This document shows positions 6,725-64,000 of a stretch of 64,000 nt of DNA, piece by piece. The position numbers and the translations under genes were made by a program. The notes under the pieces were generated by a model that saw nothing but the letters and a program-made list of their open reading frames with translations, was not told the DNA's origin and ran no database searches. The first letter of the stretch is position 1; the number at the start of each line of letters is the position of its first letter. The stretch is taken from assembly GCA_036630325.1 (NCBI GenBank), contig CP142726.1, positions 744,001-808,000 on the forward strand, given 5' to 3'. Origin of the DNA: Vairimorpha necatrix (lineage: Eukaryota).

Positions 6725-6739
6725 TTAAAAATATTTCTT

Positions 6740-9725: not shown

Positions 9726-9877
9726 GGTGCCCTTAGCCCATTGCTCAATGGATGCTCTTATTGAGCAATGGCTAGGGACAAATCCCAGGGACATAAAATT
9801 GTTTCTACTTTCTATGATGCAGTTGGAACAACTTAGACGATGAAAATGTCCCTGATAATCAATAAGTTGATTCAATG
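9726..9877 (+). mobile_element. SINE-like retroposon, 5' part (tRNA-like head) of a copy split by a Merlin element
   Basis: Matches 10343-10497. The upstream flank ATAACAATTT (9711-9720) is duplicated after the poly(A) at 13103-13112. Confidence 0.85.
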
Positions 9878-12105: not shown

Positions 12106-12461
12106 GGCATAAGATATCCGGAGTTAATACCATTATTTCAAAAGAATTCGTACATCCTATGGCTTTTTTAGTGATTTCATCCACTAGCCAGCATATTGCC
12201 TCATGTGGTCTTGGATAATTTTTGACCTACTATCAAGAGGCTCTAGACATACCATAAGGGTAAAATTTTTTTGAAAAAATCATCTAAAAAACAAATAAGT
12301 TTATAGCTCAAGAAATGTTAATTCGAATGAAATTTAAACAAATCTGTAAAATTTTGACTCCTGGGGATATAGTTCGTAAAAAAACATCTTCACACTTTAC
12401 GGTCTGTGACCGGATTCAGTAAGTAAAAAATAGCGAAAGTCTGGGCTCGGGCAGTTGCACC

Positions 12462-13102
12462 ATTCATTAGAACTTATGTGTATTTAGCTACAGGTGGATT
12501 AAAATCTAGTGTAGAAACGCACCTCAAGGCCGAAACAGTATCAACCTTGTCGCGACTTAATGATGCATAAAAGTATCTAATTGGTACGGCCTAGTTGGTG
12601 CCTATGGCTGGTGCACCTTAAAGCGGGATCCTAGAGCTAACTAAGAGACTGGATTAGTAGGGAATAAGAAGGTCTTGTGGACCCTATCCTACAGGATTCT
12701 GGATCATGGTGGCTAAAACTAGCGGGAGACTTGTGGTTAACGCAGCCCAATAAAAAATGTTGGTCTGGTGATGTGGCCGCGCAAGGAGCCGTGTGTGCGA
12801 TACAGATGATTTTAGGAACCTTTAAGTTAGTACTATGATGTCTATCCTCGGGTTATAGAAAACCATGCCCGTTAAGTATATTCGCCGTGAGGTCCCTCTG
12901 GGCGATTTGAGGTATAAATGAAAAGTGTTCTCCTGATGCCAAAGTCCAATGGATACATCGGAGCTTGCTGCGCCAACAAGTTGTATGAAAATAGTTTAAG
13001 TAAGTAAGAATCCCACAGTACCAGTTGGATATAGATCACTTCCAAATCCCTCAGGTCTCTATGTAGGGGTGCTCCCTACCTCTTACTTGCTTAAGAAAAA
13101 AA
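12462..13102 (+). mobile_element. SINE-like retroposon, 3' part of the split copy
   Basis: Resumes where 9726-9877 stops, is colinear with 10490-11131, and ends CCTCTTACTTGC plus poly(A) and TSD. Confidence 0.9.
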
Positions 13103-14565
13103 ATAACAATTTGTAGGAGAGAAGAATGCATAAAAATGATAAAAATCACTTAAAAAGGAGTATTATTAGCAGCATTATGTATAAAATTTATTTAATGGAT
13201 TATTTATTATAACTACATATAATTTCTAATTTATACTTAGCTCCCCCTCTCCAATAAAAATATTTGAATTGATATTTTTTTGCCTGTTTAAAAAGTTTAA
13301 ATCGTCCTGGAAGGAAAGTAGCAAACAAAAAATTACATGTTACAAAAGTTGTCTTATTAAAATCATATTTGATTATAATTTGTGCAAAAGATCATTTTAA
13401 ACTCTTTTTAATGAGCGGTGTTTTTATGTTTGTTTAATCGATGTCTAAATTTGTAAAAATTTTAAAAATGTTATTATTTTAATACTATAATCAATTTTTA
13501 AATCAGAAAAACATATTTTAAAGCAGTTTTTGTTGTTATTAACAGATTCTAGGTTTGGTTATTATTATTTTCTAATATTTAATATAGTTTATTTCTTTTT
13601 AGTATTTCATTGATTTTTAAAGTTTAACTATGTTGTAATATGTAATATTTATGCTCTTTTAGGCATTTTAAACATATTTGACATTAATATAAAGATACAC
13701 ATTTTTGTTTCTCCCAAAAGAAAAATATCGTATATTTATACATATGTAAATTTCAATAAAATATGCTCCATAACATAATTTTTTTTTACGTAGAGATTGA
13801 TCAAGATTTATCTTAATGGTACACCCCAATGTATAATAAAGATAAGCCTTGCACAAAAAAGTGAAAAATATTAAAAAAAGTGAAAAAATGTTTATTTTGG
13901 AGATTGAGCCATATTATTATAACTTTATTTTTTGCTTTTGACTTTCCATTTTTCGCTACAACTTTCAAAAAACAGGGCTAAAAATAAAAAATCCTAATTT
14001 TATACTAGTAAGAGGAGGAAATTAAAGCGGAGATTCAACTATCTTATTTAACAATTATAATTTAATTTATTATCGTAGCCGATAAGTTAAGCTTATGACG
14101 CAGTATAATTAAATTCCGAATCAATTTATAAATATTTAATTAATTTTCAACGAGGAAGCCGTTTAAAATTAGTAAAAAATTCTCTTACTGTGGTACCCTC
14201 TGGTGAGGGAGCCAAAACGAAAATATTGCCCCAACAGGGTGCGAATGTAAGTTTGTTTTTTTACTAATTTATTAATGTTTGGGATCATCTTTGTGGTTCC
14301 CATATTAGTTGTATTTTTATAGTGATAATTTCTGTTCCTGTCCATTATGTCGTCTCTTCTTTGAATATTTTTTATTTTTAAAAAATAATTTCTAGAAAAT
14401 TCATTTTTGTTAAATATTGAGATAAAATAAAAATAGAACAAATGTAAAAATTATGTGATAGGATACCACACTTACAAGGAATAAGAATTAGTTTTGTGAT
14501 TTGATCATTTATTAAAAAGAAATTAAAATTATTTGATTTTTTAAATAAAAAAATATTACCTCTAA

Positions 14566-15186
14566 ATGGTTTTAGTTAACTTATTTTTTATCTTCAATCT
14601 ACAAAAAATAACAGCTAGCGATAAAAACAATGCAGACATGCCAACAAAAGAAACAAATGAAAGAATAGGATCATATGGAGACATTGCCAATAAAAAGGTT
14701 TATATCTGGGTTGATCTTGACAGTAATCAGAAAGCATCTATATTTGCAGAGGCAATATTTAACAGTTTGGTAGCAAAAATGACATCTCCAATAGTGGTGC
14801 ATTATGAAAAGTCAAAGGGGTTTAAAGATAAATCGTATGAAATTTATAGGCAAGATATGGATTTGGGTCTATATAAAAAAATACTTAGTAAAGCTAGTTA
14901 TTCTAAAAATTTCAATGGAAAAGAAAAAGTAATTCACGATTTAGTGTTTTCTCTTGCAAATCATACATCGGAATTACAAAAAGACTTAATATCGTGGGTT
15001 CAAATTTGCAACGATCTTGATCTCGACGTGATAAAATTGTCTATAAGACAATATGCTGATATAAAGTTTACCGATAAAAATAATATATGTTTCGAGCAAG
15101 TTTTCAAACATAAAGACTTCGAACTGATTAATGCCAATATCAGAAAAATTTATGAATTAATAATATTAAATATAAGAAAATACTAG
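14566..15186 (+). CDS. Signal-peptide family protein (member 2)
   Basis: 206-aa ORF: MVLVNLFFIFNLQKITAS, YEIYRQDMDL.LY, GKEK..L..SLA, IKF....FEQVF. Confidence 0.85.
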   Translation: MVLVNLFFIFNLQKITASDKNNADMPTKETNERIGSYGDIANKKVYIWVDLDSNQKASIFAEAIFNSLVAKMTSPIVVHYEKSKGFKDKSYEIYRQDMDLGLYKKILSKASYSKNFNGKEKVIHDLVFSLANHTSELQKDLISWVQICNDLDLDVIKLSIRQYADIKFTDKNNICFEQVFKHKDFELINANIRKIYELIILNIRKY

Positions 15187-15999
15187 TTGAAAATCCAGTG
15201 TTAGCTACTTTTTTTTGCGATGTGGGTGGATTTGTTGAAGATTGTCCGATTCCTTTAGAAGAGGTCAGAATATAAATTTTATCTTTTTTTATTTTATACG
15301 ACTGAGTAATCGGATCTGCATATTTATTCATCAACCATATATAAACTATTTTTTATAATTATTATACAAGTATTTTAGTTTTAATTTTTTTGGACCGAAA
15401 ATGTCATTTTATGTTTTCTAGTAATGTAGCATAGAAATTATTAATTCTCGAATATAAAACAAAAATTTGAAGTCAAAATCTTGAGAAAAAATAACATATC
15501 GAGGGCATTGAATTATATTTATCACAAAGACATCTACTTAACGTATAAGTGATACTAAAACATAAAATTTTCTGGAATATAAAGGCAAAACAACTATAGA
15601 AGATCCAGTGAATAGGTTGGTTAAGGGTTTTATAGATTGTTGATTGGTTTTTTGGAAAAAGTGGGATCTTAAGAAACTCGAGGACAGTTAACACTAATGA
15701 TACTAACAAATTTGGATACCTAGTTTACTATAGCGGCATAATGATACGAAATTTACTTTTCATGTTGTTATTAATGAAAAATGGTTGTTGAAAATAAAAA
15801 CATAATGGAGATGTTATATGTTTTGAGATATAAAAAAAAGAATACTACAAATTTTTTCTCTAATAAAAAAATAATAAATCTGTTTTTATTTATAACATTT
15901 TTTACAAAGCGATATCGTCGCTAATTTCGCAATAATTTTTTTTTTACAATTAAATTAAATTTAATGTCTCGCTTTCTTTGCATTATCCTATTTTACGCC

Positions 16000-17600
16000 T
16001 CAATAATTTTTAGATCTTGTGTAAGTTTGTGTATTGATAGTTAATTCCTCATCTTTCTTACGATTGTTCACGATAACTCAAAAATCGCCGGCATATTCTT
16101 CTGCTAACTTATGTAAAAATCCTGCCTCGAACTTTTATTATTTTTATTGCTTGTACGTAATTTGGGCATATATACCAGCTATTTCAAGAATATTTAACCC
16201 CCTTAGTGCCATTTGCAAGACTTGGACTTTGAAGTAGATTCTCTCGGAATTATATCAACCATATATTCTCTAAATTTAGGTGTATTGTGATATGAAACAG
16301 TTTCTGGTAAATTTATATCGTTATACTATTGATACAAATTTTCGTATAGAATTAAGCGCAACTACCTTTTTTGGCTTACCTCTGTGCACTGTAAAAGTGC
16401 ACTTATCAACAGTAAAAATTCATGATGGAATCTTCCCATGTTATCTTCCATACGCTTTAAACTAATGTCAGCTTCTTGCTGTTTGTCGAAACATTTTTAT
16501 CTAGGTTAGTATTATATGCTAGAAGTTGTATAAAAGAAATTTGTTTGTGAAAAAAAACCTGCCTGATGTCGAAGTTTTCCGGAATCATCATATGGCTTGA
16601 TCAGCTTTAATACAACATATTCAGAGAGATGCACTAAAAAGGGTCTTTTATCTTTTTCTAGATATGTAAATGGACTCCAGATTTATTTGTTATATACATC
16701 CGAAACTAACCAATATTTGATTACAAATCTATCCATTTGTAAGATATGTATTTCGAAAATCTACATTGTCATCAGTCGGAAATATCCATTGTCTATAGTA
16801 AAATACCACCTGAATTCGTACTGTTTTAGATATTATAAACAAAAAAAATTCTAAATTTCAAAACTGTAACAAATCAACCTGCTTTCGGCCTTGTTGTTCT
16901 TGAATCTCTTTTCAATAGAAATAAATCAAAAATTTTCAGTGAAATTAATTACTTCTATAATTTTGAAAAAAATAATGCCCATGTGCTATTACACAAAAAA
17001 AAAGTCTTTAAGTAGAGGGTTCGCTTGCAACTCGTGCATCTTATATCTACGAGTTGCAAGCAAGAATTTACGTTTTAGACTCCAATCTAGCCTAGTATAC
17101 TGCTTGCTGTTTGAAGGATTATTTTCTTATGTGGCCGATAAACGGTAGTCTTTTGTAATTAAAATGCAGTAATAGCTCGACCTTTCATTATATGACGTCT
17201 AAATGTGCTGTTTAAACTACTTCCTAGTAAAAATGTTTGAAATGGCAACGTTTAAAGTGGAGCGCTGTTTGTATTTCTTCCAAACAGATCCATCACTTGC
17301 AGCATTTCGTTCATTGTTCTATGTTTCAATTTTTTCAAACTTGTAGTAATCTTCATGTTTTATCTATGGCCGCTATTTACAACATTTTCAGATCTAATTC
17401 AATATAAGTAGATTCGGACTCGTTTTCGTTTAATTTTGATATGTCACGAATAAAAAAATTCATCTTTACATATTTCTAAAAACTTTTCTTTGATATCATT
17501 TCTTTTCTGAACTTTATAAGGCCTTGTTTGTCTTGACATTTATAAGTAGATATTTGATTATCACAAAAAAATTCGTCAAAAATAATGCTTAAACGCAACA
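16000..17600 (-). mobile_element. Highly degenerate piggyBac-like transposase relic
   Basis: Minus-strand fragments IKYWLVSDV..PFTYLEKD, LSEYVVLKLIKPY..SG, TFTVHRGKPKKVVAL and KLPETVSYHNTPK..VD..KW occur in piggyBac motif order. Termini not found. Confidence 0.65.
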
Positions 17601-19924
17601 TTGTGTTATTTTCATAGCCATTCCATTATTTTAAGTTAAATACTTCAAATTACATCTTTATAATGCGATTGCTAATTGTGAATGCAATAAGGTGATTAAT
17701 ATGTATCGAAAAGCCAATAAATAAAAATTGCTCTTTGGGCTAAATGATCGGACGTGTAAAAAATGTTAATAATCAAAATAAACAGCAAAGGAGGGTCTAA
17801 AAATAGTATATGATCAGCCGAATGTACATGTCAAAAATTTTAAGTGATTTCGATGGGGGGAATAAAATAATAAAGAACGTGCATTGCCCATGAAAAGGTG
17901 CGAAAAGTCTTATTTGACTCATTTTGTATAGTTTTTTCTAACATCATGTATATATTTGCTTTATTAGTTTCTTTTATCATTTAAAAGTTCAATTTGTTCT
18001 ATTAGGTTTCAGAAAAAACTTTGTTTAAACATAATAAATGTTAAAAAACTTCAGAGAAGATTTAGAACTACATATACTGAGTTATATTCTAAAATTGTTT
18101 ATTCAGTACAGAAAATTTTTTATTAAAAAGTCGAATTAGCTGTTGAGATAATGTATGAAGGAAAAAAAAAATTTATAATAAATTTTGTGTTTAACAATTA
18201 CATTTTCTCTTTTGCATACTAAAACTGTTCAGTGATTTTTTTTTCCGTCTGCCCATCTTTTTATATTTCTTTAAGCAAATTATTTTAATGCCTCTATGGG
18301 GTCGTTTGCCCCTCTTCATCTATAAGTATTTCTAAAATCTCATCGAATAAATGAGCTGAAAATTATAACTAAAATAAAATTTGAAATAACAATCATATAG
18401 ACATTAATATTGTATTTTGTGGCCTATTCATTAAAAAAATTGAATAATATATCTATGAAAGATGGTAAAGCAACTATAAACTAATTTTTGCATGGGTCTG
18501 TGTTTTTTACATTCTCCGTTCATTTTGAAGAGTTTCTTTCGATTCATCGGGTTTAATATTAAAATCTATTGCAATGTTACAATCTCGATGATCTTCCACC
18601 GTCAGAATTTATGGTGACATTAAGATTTTTTGATTGAATGTAAGCTGCAATTCGCCTGCATCTTTTAGATAATTTTTACAACAATATGAAATCTTAGATC
18701 ATTATGTGTTTATAGTAATAAAAAAAGCCCCAATAGAATAATTTAAAAACAGTGATAATTTTGATTTACTTTTTTTTCTAATGTAAACTTGTTTAGTATC
18801 TTAGTCATTAAAATTATTTTCAACTTTTTATACAGCGATTGAAAATTTGATTTTATTACAAAGAGGCTTTTTTATTATATGATTGTAAAATTGAACATTA
18901 TATAATATAAAAATCAATATTGTGTATAATTTTGCATATACAATGAATAAAATAGTCCGCATATTTACAAAAACAAAAATCTTACAGGTAATAAATTTGA
19001 TCGCGTGGTTTTTAATATGATGACATCAATTCGATCAATTTTTATGTTCATAATTTATAAAATAATACAAAAAAAAAATCTAATTTGTGACATAATTAAA
19101 GTTCGAATAACATCATTGTATCTACATAAGGAACCAAATCATATTATATGTTACTAAAAAATTATTTTTTTATGATTGCAACATCAAAATAAAATTATAT
19201 ATTAGATGTAAAATTTTTATATATATATATATATATCAATCTTTTATATTATAAAAAAGTTCGCATTAGATTTCCGCCTTCTATTTCGTGTTTTGAAATC
19301 TCCAAACTATTAATTTTGCACTTTAATGTTATTATAGAATCAAATATAGATATAATGTAGCAATATGACTATGATGATTGTTATACTATATTTTAATGAA
19401 TATTTTTCATAATATTTTTGTAATACCCAGTCTTAATATATTTTAGAATTGTTTTATAAAGTTTATTGAATTCTTCTACGAAAAATTTACCAAGACATAT
19501 TACCATAAAAAATGAAACATACACGAATATAAATGTTGAAAATATAATTAAAAATACTTAAAAACAATTTCTTAACTCTATAATTGTTTTTTAAATCATT
19601 TACTATTTTAAGTAAATAAAAAGTATTTTTTGTTGTTTAAAATCATACAATCTCTTTTCGAATTTATTCTTCTAATAATGGAAATTATAAAAGATGAAGG
19701 AGGTGCATATATTTACACGATATATAAATATCGTTTTAAAGATGGATAAGCATACACTAGTTACAATATCTAACTAAAACAAAATCAATGGAGATATAGC
19801 ATGGAACAAAGTGTAATATTTGATTTTTTCATATATAAAACCGATGATATATTTATAGCAACAAAAATTATTTTTACTGTTTTTGTAATTCCTTTTTTTA
19901 TAAAAAAAATTAAGCTCCTTTAAT

Positions 19925-23969: not shown

Positions 23970-24210
23970 TAAAGAGCTCCGATTAGAATCCAGAACGGAA
24001 GCATATTTTTAGACAAGAGTCCTTTTAATGACTTTAGAAAGCCTTACTATGTCAATTAGACATGGGCTTGATACTGAACAGAAAGGAGTATTCGAAGACC
24101 CACTATGTGGATTATAGGAGAAACTCCGGAACTGTCAAAAGAAATTGTGACTATAGCTTTTGAAAGTTATCAGTAATATATTTTATTATACCAAAAAAAT
24201 AATTTATAGT
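23970..24210 (+). mobile_element. 3' fragment of RLE non-LTR retrotransposon
   Basis: ELRLESRTEAY..TLESLTMSIRHGLDT matches the C-terminus of 11647-11976. Confidence 0.8.
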
Positions 24211-30914: not shown

Positions 30915-31570
30915 CGTGGACACTCAGTACAAGAGATCATGGAAAATGATCGTGCAGAAATAAGAGTAGATACGAGAATATCCACTAATATAAAGGTAAC
31001 CCATAATAAGCCTGATATTCTTGTGTTTGACAAGAAGAAGAAAGAAATTTTAATAGTTGAAGTTGGTATAACCAACCAGGATCGACTTACTATAGTTGAG
31101 AATGAAAAACTAAGAAAATATGACCTTCTTGCAAATGAACTGGGACTAATACATAAATCCCGGACAAGAATAGTTCCTTATGTAATGACATGGGATGGAG
31201 TGGTGACCAAATATCACAGAAAGTACATCAAGGAGCTAGAAATCCAACCCTACCTGGAAGCATATATCCAGTCTATTGTGATGAAGAAGACTCTAGAGTC
31301 CATCTCTTTGGAACGACGACGAGGATACGATCAGGAGGATGCAGGAGAAGAAGAAGTGGCTAGAGCTGTAAGCGCACTAGCGAATATGGCGACTGTTAAA
31401 GAAGTGGTGTCGGCAAAGGGGAATGAAGCTGCTAAAGTGAAGTTGGAAAACATTAATAATTCCACAGAAACCAAAGTCTGTGAAGAGCTGAATCCCATGA
31501 GCGATACCGGGGAAAGCTGTGCTATGAATATCTAAACATAATTGAAAATTAACTCAATAAATCTTTTATT
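30912..31570 (+). mobile_element. 5'-truncated RLE non-LTR retrotransposon (R4/Dong-like) inserted in a (TA)n tract
   Basis: Open frame HSVQE..KPDILVFDKKKKEILIVEVGIT..EKLRKYDLLA, stop at 31535, AATAAA at 31556; (TA)n at 30883-30911 and 31571-31593. Confidence 0.92.
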
Positions 31571-37448: not shown

Positions 37449-38195
37449 TTTTTTGCAAGTAGGAGCTAGGAACCCCCTTACATAAAAACCAATAAGAGTT
37501 GGGTGTGATCGTCATCCAACTGGTACTTTGAGATGTTTACTCACTAAAACCCCCTTCATACAACTTGCCGGTGGAGCAAGCTCCGCCGTATTTATTGGAC
37601 TTTGACACCAGCAACTCTTTTCATTTATACCTCAAATCGCAGTAGAATGACCTCACGGCGGATATACTTAACGGGCATGGCTATCTACAACCCGAGGAGA
37701 GACATCGCCGTACTATTTCAAAGGTCTCTCAATCATCTCTATCGCACACACGGCTTTTTACACGACCACATCACCAGCCCGGCATTTTATTTTTCTGCAT
37801 TAATCATTAGTCTCCCACTAGTTTCGGCCACCGTGTTACAGAATCTTGTAGGATAGGGTCTACGAGATCTTCTATAGTTTTACTATGTCTAGTCTCTTAG
37901 TAGGATCCAGGGCTCCACTCTGGTGTGCTCCAACTAATCCGTACCCATCAGGTACTTTTATGTATCATTAAGTCACCACAAAAGTGATACTGTTTCTAAC
38001 CCTTAAATTGCGTCAATACATTAGCTTTATATCCTTGTGACTGGACACACAAGTTTCATTGAATCAACTTAATGATTATGGACATTTTCATCATCTGAGT
38101 TGTTCCAACTGCATCATAGAAAGTAGAAACAATTTTGGTGCAGGAAACACATCCATTGCTCAATAGAATCGTCTTCGTATTGGGCTAAGGACTCC
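37449..38195 (-). mobile_element. SINE-like retroposon copy
   Basis: The reverse complement is colinear with 10343-11131 over its length; T-run at 37449; head degenerate. Confidence 0.88.
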
Positions 38196-44884: not shown

Positions 44885-45108
44885 AAATCCATACAGGGAG
44901 AATAATAGGAAGAATAAGTACAAGCCTACTGAAAGCAGAGGTATAAATAGTAGATATCATATTTATACATAAAGCTTGTCTTTATAAATTTAACTCCGTA
45001 AAAGCGGGTATTATTCATAATTATATCGCATCTAGAAATATAAAGAGTCTAAGCTTATAATACCAGAGAAGAAACATTGTAGTATCATCACAGCTTATTA
45101 TTTGAAAT

Positions 45109-45770
45109 CTTTTTTTCATGTGAGTAAGAGGTAGAGAAAACTCTAGCCATTGGCCATAAAGAAATGCAAACTTTATTTTTTAAATGACTGATATTGTGAG
45201 ATTTTATTTCACTAAAACTCCTACAATTAAACCAGGAGGCGCAGTAAGCTCTGCCATGTCCTTTAGACAACTACTCTGTATAACAACGTTACTATGAATA
45301 TTATATCACGTCTAGAAAAATCTACAGCACGAAAAATTACCTAACTCGGTTTAAATCTTATAAAGATATCTAAAAAAACATTAAGACCTTTATTTTGTAC
45401 CGCAAAAGCCCCCTAGGACACCAAGACTGCTTTTTATGGGCGGAGAGAGCACTTTTTTCATGAATATTGTGTAGCCTGTTAAATAACACTGTAAAATAGG
45501 CCCACGCGGCCCTTTTTGATCTACTTCGTCTAGTCTCTTAATTAACACAAAACGTGCACAAAAATAGGCAGCTGCATGCTGTTCCAGAGAAATCTTCAAA
45601 TATCAATAATTTACCATAAGCGTAATATTATTTCACCTTGAAAGTGCGTTTCTACACTATCAATAATCTTCCTATGGTTGGCGCACACGGGTTCATGATA
45701 TTAACACAATGATTTTTGTATACATTTTCATCATCTAAAATTTTCCAACAACAATAAAAACTAATTTTTT
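45109..45770 (-). mobile_element. SINE-like retroposon, strongly divergent subfamily copy
   Basis: Retains in order AGATGATGAAAATGT, TAGTGTAGAAACGCAC, TAAGAGACTAGACGAAGTA, GAGTTTTAGTGA..AATCTCACA, then CCTCTTACT plus A-tail. Spacers are divergent and the head is unclear. Confidence 0.8.
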
Positions 45771-47157
45771 TAGATCCCCCAATGGTTTAACTAAGAAACA
45801 GCCACTGGGCACGCCTAACATTTCCCGCAAATTTATTATTAATTTAAAAGGGTTTTTTAACTTTAAACATAAGTTACATAAATAAAGGTCATGTGAAAAG
45901 TGTGGTTAGACTTAAAGCTGGCTTGAAATTGAAGAAGATGTATACGTGTATCGAAATTCATTTTATTAGTCATAAGGCAAGTTAATTGATAAAATAATTT
46001 ATAGAAAAAAAATCCGCCATCGATCTGAACAATTTCGAAGAAGATGTTGACGAATAAACTATAAAATAAATGGTCTATAATATACAGAATACTATGTTAG
46101 TTTCTTCATCATATTTATCTTAGAAATGCAGTTTTAAATCATAGACCTGGTAAATACATTTAACAAAATGCCTATTATTCTATGGTATTGGTATGTACTT
46201 ATGTATTTGAATCTCAAAAATTTAACGATTGTTGACCATGTAATGTTTTTTCAAGAGGTTAATTTTAAAGGGAAATTTCAACTATTGATGTTGATGATAA
46301 TCTTTTTGTTTTGATTCTTTTGCGTGTTCTGAGGATGTTAAGGGCTCTATGGGGGTTAAATATACCATATGTTGAATTGCAATTTCAACTATGCAAAAGC
46401 TCAAAATTATTTTACTGGCTTCCCCTATTATTTTTGCAATCTTTGTTTAAACGATAATTTTACTTTATATGTTTATTGCAGATAAATATCTATAATAAAC
46501 GTTAATTTGAACAGATACATCAAAATTTTTGATTTAAAACATCCAAAAGTTAAATAACAGATATTTGTTATAACTTAAAACCACATATCTTGTATTTGTT
46601 CACTAAAAGATGATTAATGAAAATTTAAAAAAAAAAGTTTTTACAAAAAAAACAATTTCTGCTAAAAAATCTTCTTATAAACAATTAGCCCTACAATAGC
46701 GCTTTTGTTTATAATTACATTATTGGCTTTTTAACTGCAAACATTTCTAGATTTTTGTGTTTTGAAATTATAAGCTAAAATGTGAAATTTATATATTAAA
46801 AAATTACAGCGTAAACTCGTCTTTAGTATTTTATCCCCGTTAAAGCTCTTTTTATAGTAATTCATCGTTTAATATATGATTGATTAATTGGAAATACAAT
46901 AAAGTAACTAACTAAAAACTAAAAAAAACTAAAGTTTTTCAATGGCGCAATTCTTTGATTATTACACTTTTTTTTTACTTTAACTATATCTGTCAAACTT
47001 CTCATTGATTATAATGTCGGTAAAAGTGATATCATATAGAATTTTTTTATTACAGAAGATAAAAAATCATAGTAGCATTTTCATCGACATAAAATATATT
47101 GCGCTTGCGTGTTAAATTTCAAAATTATCTATATATCTTCGTTTTTTTTAATCCCAT

Positions 47158-48540
47158 ATGAATGAAAATGAAGATATATTAGAATGGGTAAAATTTATAA
47201 ATATACCCGATTATACAATATTTAAAAAAAGAACTCCACATCTCAATAGATACACAAGTAAAAACACAAAAAATCTTAATAAGTGGTATATAAGAATTGT
47301 CAAGAACGATAATCCTCTTATAGGATATAAATATTGGATTAATGTAAATGGATATCTAGACAATAATACCTTCATTCGAAGCTCGCCCATTTATAATATA
47401 TATGGTCCTTTAGAAGTACTTACTGCCCACACTAAGTATAATTTAGCTGAAGATAGTGAAGTATTAAGCATTTCTCCGCATATTAAGTTTGAAAAAAGTA
47501 AATTAAGAAAGTTTAGCAAGGGATTTCCTAATGACTGGAAGGAGTTGGTCACAAAACAGCTTACAAAGATATTTGGGCAAGGTATAAAAGCGAATATGTT
47601 AGATTGTGAGAAAAAGTTAACTTCATTTGAAAAAATATATAATGATATATTTGACAATCAAGAAGCAGAAAATGTAGATGCAGAATGGGAAGAGTTACAA
47701 GTCCCTTGTCTTAAATTGAAAGATGACGATATACTTCAAGAAGATAGTCTCGAAGACAATGGCCTGATAGAGCAAGACTATATAGAAGAAAATCATGATA
47801 CATTAGAAACTGAAGAGCAATTAAAAAACAATACAAAAAAAATCAAGAGTAAAATATCATTGAGACGTCAAGCCACGCTTAAACTATCAAAAGATGAAGT
47901 TAGCGAAGACATAGAAATAATGTCCTTCTATTTAGCTTCTAAGAAACCACAAAATGAAAACAGTAAATGTATGAGAACAAACATGAAAGAGCCGATAATT
48001 AATATAGACAAGTCATTTATTCTGACACATGAGGAAAATATGTCATTAGATACTGAAAACGAGAATAACAATGATAATATTCTCAAGACAAAAAAGCTAA
48101 ACAAAAATGAAGAACCGGGATTTCATACAAATATAAAAGATGAACACGCCATAACGACAAAATTCGAAGAAAAACCAAGAGATAGAGCAAGTTTAAAAGA
48201 TAGTGAAAACCAAAAAATAGATATCAATGAAATAGACGAATCGGGACAATCCTTCGAAAGCGTTACGGATACCTACAATAGTTCAAAATGCAACACAAAT
48301 ATAGAACTTAACATCAATGAGAACATCGAAGGCGATTCTGAATATACCATAGACAGTAGTTACAACACTATGGATATACTTTCTTCGGGTGTAACACCAG
48401 ATGATATAAAAGATAAAGATTATTTACAGGACTCCAAATTAATCGAGAGCATTCTAGGTTTAGGGAAAATGATGGAACTTATATCATTTGATCATGTATA
48501 CTCAGGTAAAGTAAAGAAAAGAAAGAGAAAAGAAAACTAG
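47158..48540 (+). CDS. SANTA-domain (KNL2/M18BP1-like) protein paralog, 3' end decayed (possible pseudogene)
   Basis: LNKWYI..INVNG..RSSPI..LTA..Y.L..FSKGFPNDWK. Similarity to 57660-59318 continues past the stop in broken frames (YEEVSNK, ~48660). Confidence 0.7.
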   Translation: MNENEDILEWVKFINIPDYTIFKKRTPHLNRYTSKNTKNLNKWYIRIVKNDNPLIGYKYWINVNGYLDNNTFIRSSPIYNIYGPLEVLTAHTKYNLAEDSEVLSISPHIKFEKSKLRKFSKGFPNDWKELVTKQLTKIFGQGIKANMLDCEKKLTSFEKIYNDIFDNQEAENVDAEWEELQVPCLKLKDDDILQEDSLEDNGLIEQDYIEENHDTLETEEQLKNNTKKIKSKISLRRQATLKLSKDEVSEDIEIMSFYLASKKPQNENSKCMRTNMKEPIINIDKSFILTHEENMSLDTENENNNDNILKTKKLNKNEEPGFHTNIKDEHAITTKFEEKPRDRASLKDSENQKIDINEIDESGQSFESVTDTYNSSKCNTNIELNINENIEGDSEYTIDSSYNTMDILSSGVTPDDIKDKDYLQDSKLIESILGLGKMMELISFDHVYSGKVKKRKRKEN

Positions 48541-49825: not shown

Positions 49826-51055
49826 GATACTATTAGCCCACGCATTTGAGGCGCTACGATTTTTTTTTCGAACCCCAAAAAGAAGTGCAAAAAAGGAGGA
49901 GAAAATAGGGAACAAAAAATACTGACCACTTTCGATAGTTAAAATCTTTAATAAAAACATAAAACGCCTTTAATTAAATTTTTATACCAAGATATATCCT
50001 TTTTTTGTGTTTAAATATATGATTTACATTTTAACAATTTATACAAATTTCAAAAATTTTTAATAAATAAATCCCTTAAAAATGATCAAGAAGTACAAAT
50101 GCATCGAAGGAATCATGAATGCATTGATAGAAATTAAATAACCACTATTTTTGTCCACTTTGCATTGGTAATTTAAAAAGATGCAAAAAAAAACTTAAAA
50201 TAAACTCATTTTTCAACAGGAACATGTAGGAAAAGTATTATTATTACAAACAAAAAGCCTTTTTTCAACGCAAGATTACCATGGTTAAAAATATGTCAGG
50301 TGATTTTTTGTTTATTGATATTACTTCTTTAAAAAATATATTATCTATAAGTAGAAAACCAATTAATGCAATTATTAGTGATGTTAGCAAGAATGTTACC
50401 GGTAATAAGAAGATTGGAGGACCTGGTATCATTGTAGAGATTGACGAATCTAAATTTGGGGAAAGGAAATACAATAAAGGACACAAAGTTGAATGTGTCT
50501 GGGTACTTGGAATGGTCGAAAGTACAAAAGAAAGGGTATAGTCTTACTTAATGTAAAAAATAGGAAAGCTGAAACTTTTGAAGGTTGTATCAAAGAGTAC
50601 GTACTTTCTGGCTCCATAATCTATACAGAATATTGGAAAGGATTCTCAAATCTATCAAAAATAGGAATATATGACCACTATGCGGTAAATCGTTCATTCG
50701 GGTTTGTAAATCCAATTTATGGAGTCCATACAAATACGATCGAAGGAACTTGGTCTGCAGTAAAAAGAGTAATACCGATAAAAAACCGAACAAAAATGAT
50801 ATAAATTGCATTTTAAACATTTTTGCATTCAAAAATTTAATTCATATAACCCCGTACAATCTTATTAAACAAAAGTTTTAACTAAAAAACTTGGTAAAAA
50901 AAAAATTTAAGGTGTTTTATGTTATTATTAAGAATTTTAACTATCGAAAGTGGTCAGTATTTTTTGTCCCCTATTTTCTCTTCTTTTTTTGCACTTCATT
51001 TTCGGGGTTCGAAAAAAAAATCGTAGTGCCTTAAATACGTGGGCTGATAGTTATC
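49826..51055 (+). mobile_element. Merlin (ISXO2-like DDE) transposon with ~160-bp TIRs and frameshifted transposase
   Basis: KIGGPGIIVEIDESKFGERKYNKG..WVLGMVE, IYTEYWKG, HYAVN..FVNP..HTNTIEGTW; 49826-49990 is inverted at 50890-51055. Confidence 0.95.
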
Positions 51056-53916: not shown

Positions 53917-54666
53917 TTTTATTTTCTTTGTAAGTAAAGGGTAGGTAGAAATCTTCATAAGGGATTTGGAGGTGATCCTTATCCAACTAATACTGTGAGA
54001 TTCTTACTCACTAAAACTCACTATGTATAACTTGCCTGTGAAACAAACTCCGCCGTATAATTGCACTTTGGCTCTGGGAGAACTTTCCCGTTTGTACCTC
54101 AAATAGTGTCTAGAGCGACCTCATGACGGATTTATCAACGTCCATGGTTTTCTATAACCTGAGGAGAGACATCATCGTACTAACTCAAGGTCCCACAATC
54201 ATCTGTTCACACACACGACTCCTTACACGTCCATATTACCGGCCACATTTTATTGACCTGCGTTGACCACGAGCCTCACTAGTTTGACCTACATGTTACA
54301 TAATCCTGTATGATTTGATATAAAAGGTTTTTAAATACCGTATTTCATTTAGTCTCTTAGTTAGTTCTAGAATGCACCAGCCATGAGTCCAACTTATCTG
54401 TACTCAGCAGATATTTTTATGTATCATTAAGTCAATACGAGAGATACTGTTTTTTCGGTCTATATGTAGATTTCTTCGCTAGGCCAATTCCCATATTACT
54501 TAACCATAAAGGCTTTATTAATCAACTTAATGATTTTCGTGGAGATTTTCATCATCTGAGTCGTTCCAACGGCATCATTGAAGGTAGAAAGCCTTTAGTC
54601 CGCCTGGGATTCGAACCTAATCATGATCGATAGAAGCTCTGCCTTCGATCATGAACTAAGAGCATC
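53917..54666 (-). mobile_element. SINE-like retroposon copy
   Basis: The reverse complement is colinear with 10343-11131; head has B-box GGTTCGAATCC (54617-54607). Confidence 0.85.
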
Positions 54667-54899
54667 TGTTTAGAGCGATCTTGGCATGAGAAAATTTGTT
54701 CATTGAGACCAAAAAATTTTATATATCTCTATGCATGTTTTTTAAGCATAATTTTGGGAAATCAAAATTTTTATTGCGTTTGGTGACATGTGCCAAAACT
54801 CTTTGGTATTAATTAACAACTTTTTTTCTATCCTATACACTAAGTATTCGTGTTATTATTTTAATTTAAGAATCTGCTATCTCCTTCCGTTAAACATAT

Positions 54900-56300
54900 A
54901 CCTTTTTTTACGTACTCTATTTTGAGGTTTCATTCGGCAAGTGTCAATACCAGCCTTACGAGTCGACTAGAAGGGGCTTTGTTTGCATGGGGTATATTGT
55001 GTCTTGTGATTAGTTCTACTTGTAAAATTCTTTCCTAATAGACAAATTCAAAAGTGATTTGTTTATTTATCGGTTAAATAATTCTTTATATGTTACTGAA
55101 AATTTTTCTTAAAATTTTGTTAGACTTTTGCTTTATATTAAAATCATTTTCTTCTACTCGTTCGTTTTCTTGCACCAAAAAAATTATATTTCAATATATG
55201 AGGTGTCCGCCATGAGTATAATTTTTTTGAAAATCAGGCTTAGTTTTAATAATACCTTCCCCATTGCTATTTTGTATTATTAAGAGCTTCTATTTATTCA
55301 CTGTGGAGATAGATCTTTTTATTTATACTATGTTTTTCTACCTTAAAATTTCCATATAAAATTGTCTGGGTTGATTTATCTTTTAAAAGCATACAAAAAT
55401 TGACAGTGCATAAAAATCCTAATAGTTATTTATAGTTATAGGTATTAAGTAGGAGTTTATTTGACTGATTCGCGCCGGTCTGCTTTTATGTCTATTTACT
55501 ATAATTTTTCTGAAAATTATAATTTCATTTTTATGGAGCATAAATTTCTATAATTTTAGATATAATTTGACGGTTTCGTTTTTTCCCAAGGCTATTTGTA
55601 AATGTTCAATGTGTTCGTCTTTGCTTTTACAATATATAGTCATATTATCTAAAAAAAATAAAATATTTTTTTTATGCATATAAAAATATTGTCTATAGCT
55701 GGCGAAATGTTGACGATACATTACAAAAATCAAATGGCAATCTAATGTATTCATAAAAACGATCACACAATGAAAAAGCTGTCATATATTTTTCTTTCTC
55801 TTCATGTGGGTTGTTGGAATATGCCTATGTCGTCTTAGATTATAAAAAATGAAGCTCTACAACAGCTATCGAAGATTTGGTAATTCTAGAGATTTATGAG
55901 TCTACACCAGAATAAAATTATATATTCTATGATATATACACATTTTCAAGATTTATCTGGGTTCTGGACCATGACGATTTTACTGCAACAAGAACTTTAC
56001 TATCTCTTATTATTCCTAGCTTGTAGCGTCAAAATTCTCTTTTTAATTGTCTTCTCTTGTACAACTTTATCTTACCATTTCTTTTGTGTTTTTTTTTTCG
56101 TTATACCTCTGTATGTTATATTCACCCGATGTACACTGATTCAATAATTCTATTTCTGTCTTGAATAAATTTTTGTATTCTTCCTCCTTTTTTATTTTAG
56201 TTAGATCGTTACAGTAATTACTTTTTCTTTAACATTTGGAAATAAATCTTTAAAAATTTTAGTAACTAATTTAAATTTTTTACCTCGGATCCCAGAAAAA
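54900..56300 (-). mobile_element. Highly degenerate Ty3/Gypsy pol relic
   Basis: Minus strand YMTAFS, and FFLDNMTIYCKSKDEHIEHL (YxDD region); boundaries approximate. Confidence 0.65.
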
Positions 56301-57659: not shown

Positions 57660-59318
57660 TCACTTCTTTTTAGATTTGTTTTTGCTCGGCATACACAGCG
57701 ATTTCCTCTTTTTTACTTTACGAACATTCAGGCTGTTTGTAGTTGCGTTACTCTCAAGTTCACTAGTCATGTTTTTATTGTCTACAAATAGAGATTTATT
57801 CTCTCTGGCGTCTTCAATATCTTTCTGTTTTTGTATATTTGCATTTTGTTTGTACAATTTTTTCAAGTTTTCTATTTTAAGCTTTTCAATTAGATCATTT
57901 TTTTCTTTTAGTTTTTCTTTCTCAGTTTCTTCTTTTATTTTAGTTCGCTCTAAATTTACTCTATTCCGATCGAGTTCTTCTTTATTTTTTAAGTTGTGTT
58001 TTTGACTTTTACTGTTCTCTTTTTTTTGTTTTATTGATTTCTTTTCTTTATTACTTAGTTCTTCATAAGAATACGGTCTACTTATTCTACTATTCATAAT
58101 TTGTTCTAAAAGGGACTTGTTAGATGTTCCTGTGTTTTCATAGTTCCCTGTGTCTTTAAGTTTCTTTTTTCTTTCTGTTTCTTCTTTAAGTTTTCTTTTC
58201 TTTGCGTTGTCTGTTTCATTTTCCACACTTAAAAGGCTCTCGATTATTTTAGAATCTTGTATATAATCTTTTTCTTCTATATCTTCTAGTTTTATGTCTG
58301 TAGGTGGTTCTTTGTTTTTTCTTAAGTTTTTATTATTTGTTTTCTCTTTCTTTGCTTTTCGTTTATTACTAATAATATCCATTACATCTTGATATGATTT
58401 CCCTGTTTTCGCACTTATTTCTTGTAGATATTTAATATCTATTTCTCGGTCTCCAGATTCGTCTATTTGTTTTGTATTTACAATGTCTTTTTTAGATTTA
58501 TCTTCTTCGTTTATTTTTTCTTTCTTCTTTTCGTGTGGCTTTTCAATTTTTTTAGTATCTTCTTTTGCTGCTTCACTTGACTTTTCTTCCTCGTGTTTCT
58601 TTTTTGTTTTTTCAATTTTCTTCTTTTTATCTTTTAGTTTGTCAAGATGCGATGAGCTTGGCACTATTTCTAAATCATCTTCCTCTTCTATTTTACGCTT
58701 TAGATTTTTGTTTTTAATTGTTGGCCGCGGTGCTTCACTTTTTAATTCTAGATTACTTTTGTCTTCATCTCTAGTAATATTTATCATATCATTACTTTCT
58801 GTCTCTTCTTCTTGTTTATTAAATATCTTATTATATAACATGTCAAAGGGGGTTAATACTCTTTCATAGTCTGATACATTTAATCTCAGTCTTTCTGCCC
58901 CATATATTTCTTTAAGTTGTTTTATGACAATCTTCTTCCAGTCATTAGGAAACCCTTTACTAAATTTAGCCAATTCGTCTAAATCAAATTTGGCATGTGG
59001 CGGTTTTTTTAATATTTCGTTGCTTTCTTTTAAATAATATTTAGTATTAGCAGTGACTACCACAAAGGGCGCCTGGATACTCAAGATGGGCGAGCTTTGT
59101 ACTAATTTATTATTGTCTAGATACCCGTTTACACTAATCCAATATTTATATTTAATAAGAGGGTTATTATTCTTGACGAAGCTTATATGCCACTTACTGA
59201 GTCTCTTTTTGTTATTTCTTGTAAAGCGCTTTATTTGGGGAGTTTTTCTCCTGAAAATTGTGTAGTCTGGAAGATTTTCAAATTCTTCCTTTCTTAAAAT
59301 GTCTTCTTTTTGATTCAT
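57660..59318 (-). CDS. SANTA-domain (KNL2/M18BP1-like) protein
   Basis: 552 aa: LSKWHI..ISVNG..QSSPI..VTANTKYYL..FSKGFPNDWK followed by a Lys/Glu-rich tail; CCCCCAATG start. Confidence 0.75.
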   Translation of the reverse strand: MNQKEDILRKEEFENLPDYTIFRRKTPQIKRFTRNNKKRLSKWHISFVKNNNPLIKYKYWISVNGYLDNNKLVQSSPILSIQAPFVVVTANTKYYLKESNEILKKPPHAKFDLDELAKFSKGFPNDWKKIVIKQLKEIYGAERLRLNVSDYERVLTPFDMLYNKIFNKQEEETESNDMINITRDEDKSNLELKSEAPRPTIKNKNLKRKIEEEDDLEIVPSSSHLDKLKDKKKKIEKTKKKHEEEKSSEAAKEDTKKIEKPHEKKKEKINEEDKSKKDIVNTKQIDESGDREIDIKYLQEISAKTGKSYQDVMDIISNKRKAKKEKTNNKNLRKNKEPPTDIKLEDIEEKDYIQDSKIIESLLSVENETDNAKKRKLKEETERKKKLKDTGNYENTGTSNKSLLEQIMNSRISRPYSYEELSNKEKKSIKQKKENSKSQKHNLKNKEELDRNRVNLERTKIKEETEKEKLKEKNDLIEKLKIENLKKLYKQNANIQKQKDIEDARENKSLFVDNKNMTSELESNATTNSLNVRKVKKRKSLCMPSKNKSKKK

Positions 59319-59749
59319 TGGGGGTAAAAAAAAGGAAAATAAATAATCAGGATTGTGATTTAATGCACAGTCATAATTAAAGGAAATATATTGGAAAAGA
59401 ATATATATATATTAATTATAGAAAATTAAGCTTAAATTGTATAAGGTTTATCTTATTTAATTAAAAATGAGCTAAATAAACTCAACCAAAGATATTCTAT
59501 TTATAAAGCCATAAGCTTTAAATCCAAACAAGTTCTATAAGGTTGTTAGTTGATGATCAACAAATTCACAAATATGAGATACTTGTCCCAAGAAAGGCAT
59601 CTTGGCGTTTTAGTTTTATTTTTTACCCTCGTAATCGAAACTGACAAAACAGGGCGATCATCTTTAAAATATCCTTTGGCCTCTATAAATTTATTATTAG
59701 TTGAACTAAATGTTTAACATATTGAAAATTATACTAAGAAGATAGTAAT

Positions 59750-60030
59750 ATAATTGATTTGTATAATATCTTACTTACTAACCACTTTTCACAATATTTT
59801 CTAATAGAACTTCTGAAATCCACATTTTGGGCTCTCGAGTGCCCCCTTTAATCAAACCCATATCATATTGACATTGTTAGGCCTTCTAAAGTCATTTTAT
59901 GGATTCTTGCTTCTATTCTAATCAGAGTTCTTTGATATACGCGTGGTGGAAATTAGTTACAATTTCATCCCATGTCATTACATAAGGAATAATTTTGTAT
60001 TTGTAGAGAGAAACCACATGATTTGCAAAA
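59750..60030 (-). mobile_element. 3' fragment of RLE non-LTR retrotransposon
   Basis: 59966-60026 is near-identical to 11814-11880; degraded. Confidence 0.8.
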
Positions 60031-60771: not shown

Positions 60772-61052
60772 AATTATAGCATATAATTAAATTTATAACT
60801 TTATAAAATATGCATTTTTTATACATCATTTTTACATATTTGCAATTCCAAGACCATCTTGGATCTCTTACTAAGATATATTTGTAAGAGATCTTTAAAT
60901 AATCAAAAATCATCTTAAAGTCATTTAGATGTAAACATAATCACATCAATGTACAAAATCCAGATAAATGGCTTACATCATTGGGTCTCATTTAATTCCG
61001 TATTAGATCTTTTTCTTAGTTATATCTGAAATAAATTAGATCATAATTTATA

Positions 61053-61080
61053 CTACGATGATGTCTCTCCTCGGGTCATA
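61053..61080 (+). repeat. Short fragment of the SINE-like family
   Basis: TACGATGATGTCTCTCCTCGGGT is identical to 10858-10880. Confidence 0.75.
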
Positions 61081-61223
61081 TGATATTTGCTTTTTATATT
61101 TTATTAACATATCTACTTTTTCTAGAGTTCATTTGACCTTGTTAATTCGACATTATGTAAATTTCTCGTCTCTTCTTCTTCTTTCATGCATGAAATTTTT
61201 CTTTTTTTGCCCCTTTTTTATAA

Positions 61224-62873
61224 ATGGAAGATAAAAACACAAATTTAGACGTACTAGAACTTTCTTATCTAGAACTAAAATACTGGATAGAAAACTCTCT
61301 GGATCTTTTTAAAAATGATCTTCTTCCTTTACTATATCCTCTTTACATCCACATTTACTTCGACTTAATACAACAAAATAAGCCAGAAGAAGCGCGAAAA
61401 TTTTTTAAGAAATATTTAAAAGACCACGAAAGTAAAAAACAAGAATTAAAATATTTCGAGAGTATTTACACTCCCCAACATATTCACGAAAATAATCTGG
61501 CGCACACATTCAGGACTTCGAAATATTACCTGCCTATGGGTAGATACGCCTTTGATCTTTTATTAAATTTCTTGGAGGAAAACAACTTCACTTACATTTT
61601 GAAAGTACTAAACCAATATTTGAATATTAAGATTTATACTGGTGTAAAAAATGAAGATATTCCTCAGGGTATTGATGTATCAACAGGAGATGAAGAATTA
61701 GACTTGACTACTTTTTTAGTATCAAAAGAATGCGAAGATGCGATTTTAGTAGATGAACAATATAAATATGATCATTTAGAGGCCTACGCTATACAACTGA
61801 AGAAACAAAGAGAACTAAAAGAGTCAGACACTTTGAACAGACCAAATGCCTCACAGATAAATGCGGAAATAGAGAAACTTAAAGATTTGTGTAAGCGAGT
61901 CTCAGTAAATAAAAATAATCTGCCTAGTATTTGTTGCTACACTTTACACAACACGTACGAAGGATTAACAAGTCTTGATATTTCAAATGACTCGAAAATG
62001 ATGGCCTGTGGATTTAAAGACAGTTTTATAGACATATTTTCATTAACAAAAGAGCCATTGAGAAAATTAAAGAAGTCTAGTGAATTGGCGAAATCTGATA
62101 TAAAAACGGGAACAGAAGAGAAATTTGAAGAAGTTGGCTTTTCTTATAGGCTTGTAGGTCATGCGGGGCCTGTGTATGGGGTCAAGTTTTTTTCTTCTAA
62201 TAAGTTTTTACTGTCTTGCTCACAGGATTGTACTGTAAAACTGTGGAGTTTGGACTTATTGGCGCCTGTTGGTGTCTACAAATCTCATGTTTTTCCTATT
62301 TGGACTGTGGATGTCGCGCCAAATGACTTTTATTTCGCAAGTGGGTCGTCTGATAGACAAGCAGTCATTTGGTCAATGACAGGCGACAAACCAGAAAGGC
62401 TGATAGTCACGGCATTGAGTGATGTGACAACAGTGAAATTCCATCCTAATTGTAAATATCTCTTTACTGGGTCTGCTGATCATAAAATCAGACTACACGA
62501 CGTATCAAATGCACAACTTGTTAGAACCTTTCATGGGCACACTGACACGATAACTTGCCTTGATATTTCTCACTGTGGGAAATTATTAGTGTCAGGCAGT
62601 AAAGATAAACACATAATATTATGGGATATACAAAATGGAAAGAGTCTAATTAAATATGCTGGACATGATAGCACAGTATTTTCAGTGTCATTTAGTTGGT
62701 ATGGGACTATTATTGCTTCATCTGGTGCTGATAATTGTGTCAAATTATGGGACAAGACTGACCCGAAAGGAATATGTGTAGGAACATATTACACGAAGAA
62801 TACGCCACTATATGGTGTCAAATTTGGATACAGAAACATAATCTCGACAGCTGGACCATTTATTGGGGGATAA
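61224..62873 (+). CDS. TAF5: TFIID subunit TAF5
   Basis: NTD2 (WIENSLD.FK..L..LLYPLYIH.Y), LPSICCYT, and WD40 repeats (LVGHAGPVY, FHPN, GHTD..T). Confidence 0.96.
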   Translation: MEDKNTNLDVLELSYLELKYWIENSLDLFKNDLLPLLYPLYIHIYFDLIQQNKPEEARKFFKKYLKDHESKKQELKYFESIYTPQHIHENNLAHTFRTSKYYLPMGRYAFDLLLNFLEENNFTYILKVLNQYLNIKIYTGVKNEDIPQGIDVSTGDEELDLTTFLVSKECEDAILVDEQYKYDHLEAYAIQLKKQRELKESDTLNRPNASQINAEIEKLKDLCKRVSVNKNNLPSICCYTLHNTYEGLTSLDISNDSKMMACGFKDSFIDIFSLTKEPLRKLKKSSELAKSDIKTGTEEKFEEVGFSYRLVGHAGPVYGVKFFSSNKFLLSCSQDCTVKLWSLDLLAPVGVYKSHVFPIWTVDVAPNDFYFASGSSDRQAVIWSMTGDKPERLIVTALSDVTTVKFHPNCKYLFTGSADHKIRLHDVSNAQLVRTFHGHTDTITCLDISHCGKLLVSGSKDKHIILWDIQNGKSLIKYAGHDSTVFSVSFSWYGTIIASSGADNCVKLWDKTDPKGICVGTYYTKNTPLYGVKFGYRNIISTAGPFIGG

Positions 62874-63212
62874 TGAGAACTAGAAGCCAATTAAATTTAA
62901 TTTATACTAAATTGCATATATTTTTTGTGTAAATAAAAGAGAACATTCTTTGACGACACGAAATAAAATTCTCAATATGTAAAATAATTTATATAGAACA
63001 TTATTCTAACTTATAGCAACTATTTGATTCACTTAATTCTCAAATAATAATATATCAAGTGGTATTACACTCATAGTAATATTATATTTCATTTAAATAT
63101 TTCCAATATAACATAATTTTATATCATGTGCAATTATGAGTATCGAAAATTTTAACAAATTAATATTTGTCTCTTTATCAAAATCTCTTAGGATTTTTTA
63201 ATAAGCTTCATA

Positions 63213-63240
63213 GCTATACTTCGTCTAGTCTCTTAATTAC
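63213..63240 (-). repeat. Short fragment of the SINE-like family
   Basis: TAATTAAGAGACTAGACGAAGTA is shared with 45522-45544; its last 19 nt match 10670-10688. Confidence 0.7.
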
Positions 63241-64000
63241 CCCTAAGATGCCGCGCAAAATGATCTTGCCACGACTCTTTGTTACTATTTGGTAGAAAGA
63301 TATTCTGTTGAGGTTAATTGATTTCTAAGCTTGGGATGATTTCTAAACTGGGTGTAAATTTCATTGTACCAGATGTGACACATTAATAAATCTATTTGAC
63401 GATTTTACAAAATAGAATTGGTCTGTTCTTACTCATCATTTACAAAGATTTAGAGTTTTGTAATGTATTTAGTTTCTTTATATTTATTACATTTCTTTTT
63501 CCTTCTATTTTTTCAGGATTATTTAATTTAGTTCTTATTTTATCCCTCATTTTATGAAGTCTGATTTATTAACCCCATATACTGCAATATCTTTACTAGT
63601 TACTACAATGCTGGGCACTGGTATAACTTTCATGCCCTATGCTTTTAACTCTATAGGCTATAATTTCTCATTCTTAATTCTAATCTTCGTATCTTTTTGC
63701 ACTTTCATTTCTCTTCTTTGTATATCTCATGTTGTAAAAATCTCTCCTTTAAAGAAACATACTTATCTTTCTATAAGTAAAGATATATCAAAATTTATGT
63801 ATTATTTCGTCAACATATCATTATTTTGTAATTGTTTCTTTTCTAATGTATCTTTTTACAGATTTCTTACTGATATTCTTATTGAAATATTCCCATTTTC
63901 TAAGTGGCTAAAATTAGATCAAGAATATACTCGAAAAATAATCGCTCTTTTGATCTCGCCACTTTTACTTTATTTGAGTCTTAAAAAAGATCTAGTAAAT

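Follow-up and report, generated by a model that had tools for sequence, protein, structure and literature searches.

Microsporidia have reduced genomes, and their mobile elements have been catalogued mostly as LTR elements, LINEs and DNA transposons. SINEs exist in filamentous fungi and in Entamoeba. For SINEs of the Alu/L1 type, the mobilising LINE needs little beyond a poly(A) tail.

SINE superfamilies combine conserved central domains with variable heads and tails, as described in PMC4758252. Proposals cited there give the central domains two possible roles: they may sustain the integrity of the element and its proliferative capacity, or they may facilitate the swapping of 3' ends with LINEs that are active. 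According to PMC5786205, the middle bodies of SINEs can derive from LINEs. Full-text literature searches yielded no described microsporidian SINE family, though one may already be deposited in Repbase or Dfam. Two microsporidian genome papers (PMC11585130, PMC13702014) mention SINE only as a RepeatMasker class, and one of them reports none.

The stretch studied here is a single copy of a long SINE, a non-coding retroposon with a tRNA-like head and a poly(A) tail. Its diverged copies share short blocks of identical sequence. Below, we describe the element and its subfamilies and weigh what may have kept these blocks.

Genomic context

The window, which is the whole 64-kb stretch of DNA that was analysed, is AT-rich (GC 0.28) and carries long intronless ORFs, among them those of Spt5, TAF5, a septin and Der1. 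The Spt5 ORF is 67% identical to NCER_101325 of Vairimorpha ceranae, and the remaining top named matches are microsporidian. Judging from these protein matches, the host of the element is a microsporidian of the Nosema/Vairimorpha clade.

Several other features were observed in the window. Two ORFs with a SANTA domain form an inverted paralogous pair, at 47152-48540 (+) and 57660-59411 (-), with 435 nt that are 71% complementary in DNA. Positions 49829-51051 hold a short DNA transposon whose terminal inverted repeats are long (arms 49829-49984 and 50895-51051). The broken ORF inside it matches an ISXO2/IS1595-type DDE transposase domain (E 3.7e-08), which we take to be the domain of Merlin-type elements. 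AT-rich 25-nt repeats, both tandem and inverted, are clustered at 6484-6751, between the ORF of a ubiquitin-conjugating enzyme and the next ORF. Within the 64-kb window there is no LINE, and the sole reverse-transcriptase trace is of a decayed LTR type (55548-55781). This relic of an LTR-retrotransposon reverse transcriptase, at about 55300-56000 on the minus strand and directly upstream of SINE copy G, gives a weak RVT_1 match (E 4.5e-04). Its translation across stops shows motifs typical of Ty3/gypsy.

Public sequencing runs were also compared with the window. Between positions 42700 and 44400, the depth of contigs from run X1 is 0 in the spacers and 650-18000 over the Spt5 ORF, unlike even genomic coverage. 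Run X1 is only putatively a DNA run.

Anatomy and dispersal of the element

The element is about 715-790 nt long, ~750 nt being typical, with a body of ~650 nt. Its parts come in the order tRNA-like head, non-coding body, the block CCTCTTACT, a few bases and a poly(A) tail. This anatomy is established directly, and so is the presence of multiple copies (Table 1). Six full-length copies and two short fragments are dispersed over the 64 kb, as found by blastn with the reference copy (copy C) and by nhmmer with a six-copy profile. In run X2, a main-type contig has a depth of 180 versus 2-5 for unique sequence, a depth that is not a copy number.

Table 1. Copies, fragments, conserved blocks and associated features in the window.
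Feature	Position	Strand	Description
Copy A	about 8693-9466	+	full length; third divergent lineage; 61% identity to copy C; GC 0.36
Copy B/D, 5' part	9729-9877	+	split by the 2.58-kb DNA transposon; blastn
Copy B/D, 3' part	12462-13103	+	blastn; flank duplication ATAACAATTT
Copy C (reference)	10343-11131	+	youngest-looking; GC 0.45; tRNA-like head at 10344-10413
Copy E	37449-38190	-	full length; main subfamily; blastn, nhmmer, head alignment
Copy F (copy under study)	about 45110-45830	-	full length; AT-richer subfamily; GC 0.34; blastn, nhmmer
Copy G	53917-54672	-	full length; main subfamily; blastn, nhmmer, head alignment
Isolated fragment, ~30 nt	61051-61085	+	main-subfamily block (reference 10858-10888); blastn, profile
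Isolated fragment, 57 nt	63205-63261	-	intact block 3; nhmmer, E 3.6e-07
DNA transposon, 2.58 kb	9878-12461		terminal inverted repeats; inside copy B/D; encloses copy C
Block 1, AGATGATGAAAATGT	10454; 45722 and 38082	+; -	exact match
Block 1 in copy F	45722..45736	-	exact; 12-nt core exact in copy A too
Block 2, TAGTGTAGAAACGCAC	10534 and 12507; 45644	+; -	exact match
Block 2 in copy F	45644..45659	-	exact; adjoining 13-nt run AGCATCTAGTGTA common to copies C and A
Block 3, TAAGAGACTAGACGAAGTA	10670; 45522 and 63217	+; -	exact match
Block 3 in copy F	45522..45541	-	20 nt identical to the reference
3' block CCTCTTACT in copy F	45123..45131	-	immediately ahead of the poly(A)
Hairpin of copy C, GGTC-tcgtg-GACC	10700	+	GGTCTCGTGGACC, only at 10700
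Hairpin of copy F, GGCC-gcgtg-GGCC	45499..45511	-	GGCCGCGTGGGCC, only at 45499 (-)

The Rfam tRNA model, whose gathering score is 29, gives the head of copy C 29.1 bits, with E 0.0039 when 4.5 kb were scanned. The head was reported neither by ARAGORN nor by a gathering-threshold Rfam scan of the whole window. Two of its segments, TAGCACAGTGG and GGTTCGATTCC, presumably correspond to the polymerase III A and B boxes, whose consensus they match. All six full-length copies open with related heads, and those of the five others are degenerate. The head closes with GCACCA followed by a run of A's (10406-10416, and at the equivalent place in copies A and E). Because of this ending, the source may be a mature, CCA-tailed tRNA rather than a tRNA gene.

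None of six ORFs located inside the copies has a Pfam match. An antisense ORF is devoid of codon-position bias, with 18, 14 and 22 differences from copy E at the three positions and thus no excess at the third.

Copy C is flanked by an exact 11-bp target-site duplication, TCAATTCTAAC (10332-10342 and 11132-11142), and its tail is A9. At both ends of the whole copy B/D, the flanking duplication is exact over 10 nt and continues imperfectly; the tail is A8. No clear target-site duplication is seen around copies A, E, F and G. The poly(A) of copy F reads as T7 at 45110-45116 and its degenerate head lies at ~45771-45830. The copy thus reaches ~45830, past position 45770, where the original prediction had ended it.

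Runs of four or more T on the sense strand number 11 in copy F versus one in copy C. The 11 runs of copy F fit poorly with full-length transcription of its subfamily by polymerase III. Main-type copies have one to three such runs versus five to eight runs of four or more A; the low count of copy C is not significant, 362 of 2000 shuffles having as few.

Copies B/D and C form a three-level nest, in which SINE copy C lies within the 2.58-kb transposon and the transposon lies within SINE copy B/D. The inverted repeats of this transposon are imperfect (22 of the first 30 nt match) and an apparent duplication of 8-9 nt surrounds it (ATTCAATG / ATTCATTAG). Pfam gives no match for its ORFs, and parts of its interior reappear at 59916-60005, 23971-24086 and 31169-31237.

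The two isolated fragments flank the TAF5-like ORF (61224-62873), the shorter one sitting ~140 nt upstream of it. Each retains a strongly conserved block of the family amid unrelated surroundings. For the 57-nt fragment, no further collinear match appears even at E<=50. These fragments could result from erosion by deletion or from retention for a reason.

Conserved blocks in divergent subfamilies

The existence of subfamilies is directly established. Contigs of run X1 are 88% and 90% alike to the spacers of copy F, over 207 and 295 nt, whereas reference copy C is only about 50% alike across the same spacers. Since these X1 paralogs share its spacers, copy F represents a multi-copy subfamily and not an old wreck. 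The identity of its blocks was therefore kept along the descent of source elements. Run X2 has zero cover over 45064-45457, and run X1 also holds locus-specific pieces.

GC content drops with distance from copy C, from 0.45 in C to 0.43 in D, 0.42 in E, 0.39 in G, 0.36 in A and 0.34 in F. This trend fits older lineages drifting to the composition of the genome. As divergence parallels the falling GC, some of the decay is real. The subfamily of copy F is older and AT-richer, and its source element is roughly 40-45% diverged from that of the main subfamily.

The original prediction had reported three exact blocks shared by copies C and F, two hairpins and a lone 19-mer. Exact matching located every one of them, and the lone third block at 63217 proved to lie inside the 57-nt profile match. 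A global alignment of the reference body with copy F spans 705 columns at 53.3% identity, and its three longest exact runs measure 20, 16 and 15 nt. Shuffling the columns gives a mean longest run of 9.6, and the sum of the top three runs was reached in none of 5000 shuffles. Substitutions from C to F are biased to A/T (C>T 47 and G>A 45 versus T>C 18 and A>G 19). Because of this bias, and because A/T positions are better kept than G/C positions, we also simulated divergence with base-specific conservation rates; the observed runs were again reached in 0/5000 cases. The blocks are thus non-random, and their conservation stands far above uniform neutral divergence, as had been anticipated.

The same three blocks, together with CCTCTTACT, are also the longest runs between copy C and copy A, the third lineage. 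The copy A version of the blocks carries one or two changes. Block 3 of copy F, extended to 45544, is identical to the isolated fragment (63217-63239) over 23 of 23 nt. The 3' block CCTCTTACT is exact in copies A, C, D and F and altered in E and G. Across the copies, the order of the blocks is fixed and their spacing roughly so, and their sequence is identical without compensation. In predicted ensembles, the accessibility of the blocks (fractions 0.11-0.90) is no different from that of random blocks.

Because copy F has a subfamily of its own and the same blocks form the longest runs with a third lineage, the alignments support selection on the source elements, rather than chance, as the probable cause of the blocks. 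The original prediction had placed subfamily master RNAs under structural constraint. The subfamily is real and the constraint on source elements is retained; the structural part is the one left unsupported, for the reasons given below.

Various leads from the block sequences were followed and discarded. Additional exact matches of CCTCTTACT (at 14007) and of TGATGAAAATGT (at 928) were put down to chance, their surroundings being without similarity. A short ORF starting from block 1 (13 codons, in C and F) was rejected by eye, its differences being distributed 2/4/4 over codon positions. The TGATGA within block 1 suggested a box C/D snoRNA; only Rfam noise was obtained (E 6-10) and no CTGA partner was visible by eye.

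Block 1 had no match in a scan of viral contigs, and the 19-mer of block 3 had none in a scan of genome contigs. A 20-mer from the 5' region gave one 25-nt match in a Rossellomorea chromosome, attributed to chance. In a metagenome scan, the 19-mer of block 3 matched two freshwater contigs, L001 (1191-1226) and L002 (1200-1231). The two contigs are phage-like and mutually homologous, and the match in L001 falls within a 198-aa ORF. Similarity to the SINE stops after 32-36 nt (86-91%). They were judged chance matches and not relatives, although by our rough estimate the extension beyond the seed exceeds chance expectation. A full-text search for five block strings returned only unrelated primer-like matches.

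Possible roles and origins of the blocks

The explanation that we favour, with a confidence somewhat above even, is that the exact blocks are sequence-specific core motifs of a microsporidian SINE and not parts of a large covarying fold. The element would be copied via RNA and inserted by non-LTR (LINE) enzymes, leaving target-site duplications. A handful of blocks of 9-20 nt stayed unchanged through the divergence of subfamilies. Three of them lie in the 5' half, GGAGTTTTAGTGA and AATCTCACA lie close to the 3' end, and CCTCTTACT precedes the tail. They may be functional sites of the SINE RNA that are needed for its propagation, putatively bound by proteins of a partner LINE or by RNA-binding factors of the host. 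The 3' blocks could be recognised where reverse transcription starts. The role of the blocks is inferred. Several points stand against this reading. No LINE lies in the window, SINEs are usually shorter than this element, and copy F contains many T runs. To these are added a slight excess of kept double changes, a consensus folding energy that few shuffles attain, and the possible pairing of the 3' block with GTGAGTAAGA, all three of which are detailed in the next section.

The blocks may instead be inherited pieces of a source sequence, for example an untranslated region of the partner LINE or a host RNA, which each subfamily acquired or retained, their conservation then reflecting the source's own constraint. 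Bodies and tails of SINEs are often derived from LINEs, as stated in PMC5786205 and PMC4758252, and the 3' block stands directly before the poly(A), the usual site of a LINE-derived tail. Within the window, block 3 with up to two mismatches is confined to the fragment at 63220 and to five SINE copies out of six, the 3' part of copy B/D lacking it in the same search. The blocks are absent from the rest of the window, and there is no Rfam match. We regard this origin as unlikely.

Short-tract gene conversion, or template switching of the reverse transcriptase, could also have moved the blocks as patches between subfamilies, without any selection. The blocks are exact in near-random surroundings, the copies are crowded (six in 64 kb), and runs above expectation are found between close copies as well, for example 51 nt between C and E. 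However, it is an identical set of blocks, and not random ones, that recurs in three lineages and in the isolated fragment. The one or two substitutions in the blocks of copy A are expected of old conserved sites, not of fresh patches. In addition, tracts of 9-20 nt are very short for gene conversion. Patch transfer therefore seems rather unlikely to us.

Tests of a folded RNA body

The original prediction proposed that the body may be a large folded RNA, such as a protein scaffold, a recruiter of the reverse transcriptase, a ribozyme or a captured ncRNA, with helices kept by compensatory change. We consider this improbable. Part of the evidence does point that way. The paired T-A to C-G change between the hairpins of copies C and F is real, and young copies have a GC of 0.45 versus 0.28 for the window, like structured RNAs in AT-rich genomes. 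Folding of the whole element, however, gives z-scores of only -0.83 for the sense strand (780-nt RNA) and -0.97 for the antisense strand, with 20 shuffles each. In Rfam, the body has no hit at E<=10, the tRNA-like head being all that this check of the prediction returned; the region of copy F gives only E 1.5-9.9, far under gathering scores.

Consensus structures were derived from a six-copy alignment in which copies A and F are single representatives of their lineages, so the power of these tests is low; the spacers are poorly aligned, and a conserved fold with shifted helices would be hidden. RNAalifold yields a consensus of -30.3 kcal/mol; alignments with shuffled columns average -21.6 (sd 4.2), and 3 of 120 are as low. 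This somewhat low energy speaks for a fold. The covariation term (+5.87) is a penalty and speaks against one.

The consensus contains 23 compensatory pairs versus 9.9 in shuffles, and none of 500 shuffles without re-folding reached that number. This last result is circular: the alignment being scored is the one on which the structure was optimised. With re-folding (120 column shuffles within gap and conservation classes), the expectation rises to 19.5 (sd 4.3), 31 of the 120 shuffles reach 23 and the reverse complement also has 23. In sliding windows of 120 columns, the most extreme z-scores are -2.70 on the sense strand and -2.64 on the antisense strand, two values of similar strength, and consensus energies never fall under -8.7 kcal/mol. 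The best sense window surrounds block 1, with none of 100 shuffles as low, and counts in favour of structure.

A held-out test took helices predicted from either copy C alone or all four copies of the main type and examined their pairing in A and F. Pairs with a change on either side remain standard at rates of 39% (A) and 43% (F). This is the level of the controls, in which sliding the partner by 1-3 columns gives 35-54%. When both sides have changed, pairing is kept in 10 of 16 cases in A and 7 of 15 in F, for about 3-8 of 10-19 in controls and 5-7 of 10-19 in those for copy A. This slight excess is a weak trend to some local structure.

The 3' domain would be the likeliest site of a structure that a reverse transcriptase recognises. 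Its folding z-scores, -2.0 for copy C and -3.8 for D, count in favour of a fold. In younger copies, GTGAGTAAGA may form a 10-bp helix with the 3' block, which lies ~85 nt downstream of it. In this helix, four changes are one-sided and consistent, double changes are absent and pairing stands at 78%, no better than in shuffles. As the 3' block can pair in this way, part of its conservation may serve the helix. A covariance model of the 3' domain scores 54.0 bits in copy A and 31.5 bits in copy F, compared with 47.5 and 26.2 bits for a sequence-only model. Structure thus adds only 5-6 bits, and the model leaves many non-standard pairs.

The hairpin after block 3 fares no better as a conserved structure. 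Copies C, D and F can pair it in full, E has one mismatch, and G and A have lost it, so that pairing is kept in 15 of 23 cells over the six copies. As many double changes occur in 153 of 500 shuffles. Moreover, a competing helix, parts of which are possible in all six copies, uses the 3' half of this hairpin.

A large conserved fold is not supported by the available copies. Islands of exact identity between diverged repeats speak strongly for constraint; taken alone, they are no evidence of RNA structure.

Another view is that the blocks are docking sites and that the long SINE RNA is a modular protein-binding platform, some sites of which may have been adopted by the host; we find this quite improbable. 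If it were true, the 30- and 57-nt fragments in the short spacers beside the TAF5-like gene could persist because they act as signals, either regulatory or at the level of RNA. Survival of the blocks by chance in one old copy that decayed neutrally, to which the A/T-biased substitutions and the parallel between divergence and falling GC would lend themselves, is hardly credible given 0/5000 under both null models, blocks that recur in other lineages and close paralogs that share the spacers of copy F.

Comparison with described SINEs

The element is an addition to the known class of tRNA-derived SINEs, unusual in its length and in its scattered conserved blocks. A family so well defined, with three or more deeply diverged subfamilies, would be a useful marker of genome dynamics in the clade. 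It would also offer a small natural experiment on which parts of a SINE RNA are visible to selection.

As described in PMC4758252 and PMC3272025, the CORE, V, Deu, Nin-DC, Ceph and MESC/Snail SINEs resemble the present element in having a tRNA-related head with polymerase III boxes. The resemblance extends to the body, which is non-coding and unrelated to the head, to the A-rich end, and to short body segments that persist across families otherwise divergent (PMC4758252; PMC3272025). The layout of these segments sets them apart: the named superfamilies have one domain of 40-70 nt, whereas here several separate blocks of 9-20 nt are spread over ~650 nt. The ~750-nt length and the microsporidian host are further differences from these central-domain SINEs.

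Like SINEs of the Alu/L1 type, the element ends in poly(A) and has target-site duplications of 11 nt or longer. Unlike them, it carries a conserved block directly before the tail, a trait that brings it closer to those SINEs in which the partner specifically recognises the 3' end. With the SINEs of filamentous fungi and Entamoeba, it has in common that it is non-autonomous, a few hundred nt long and resident in the compact genome of a microbial eukaryote.
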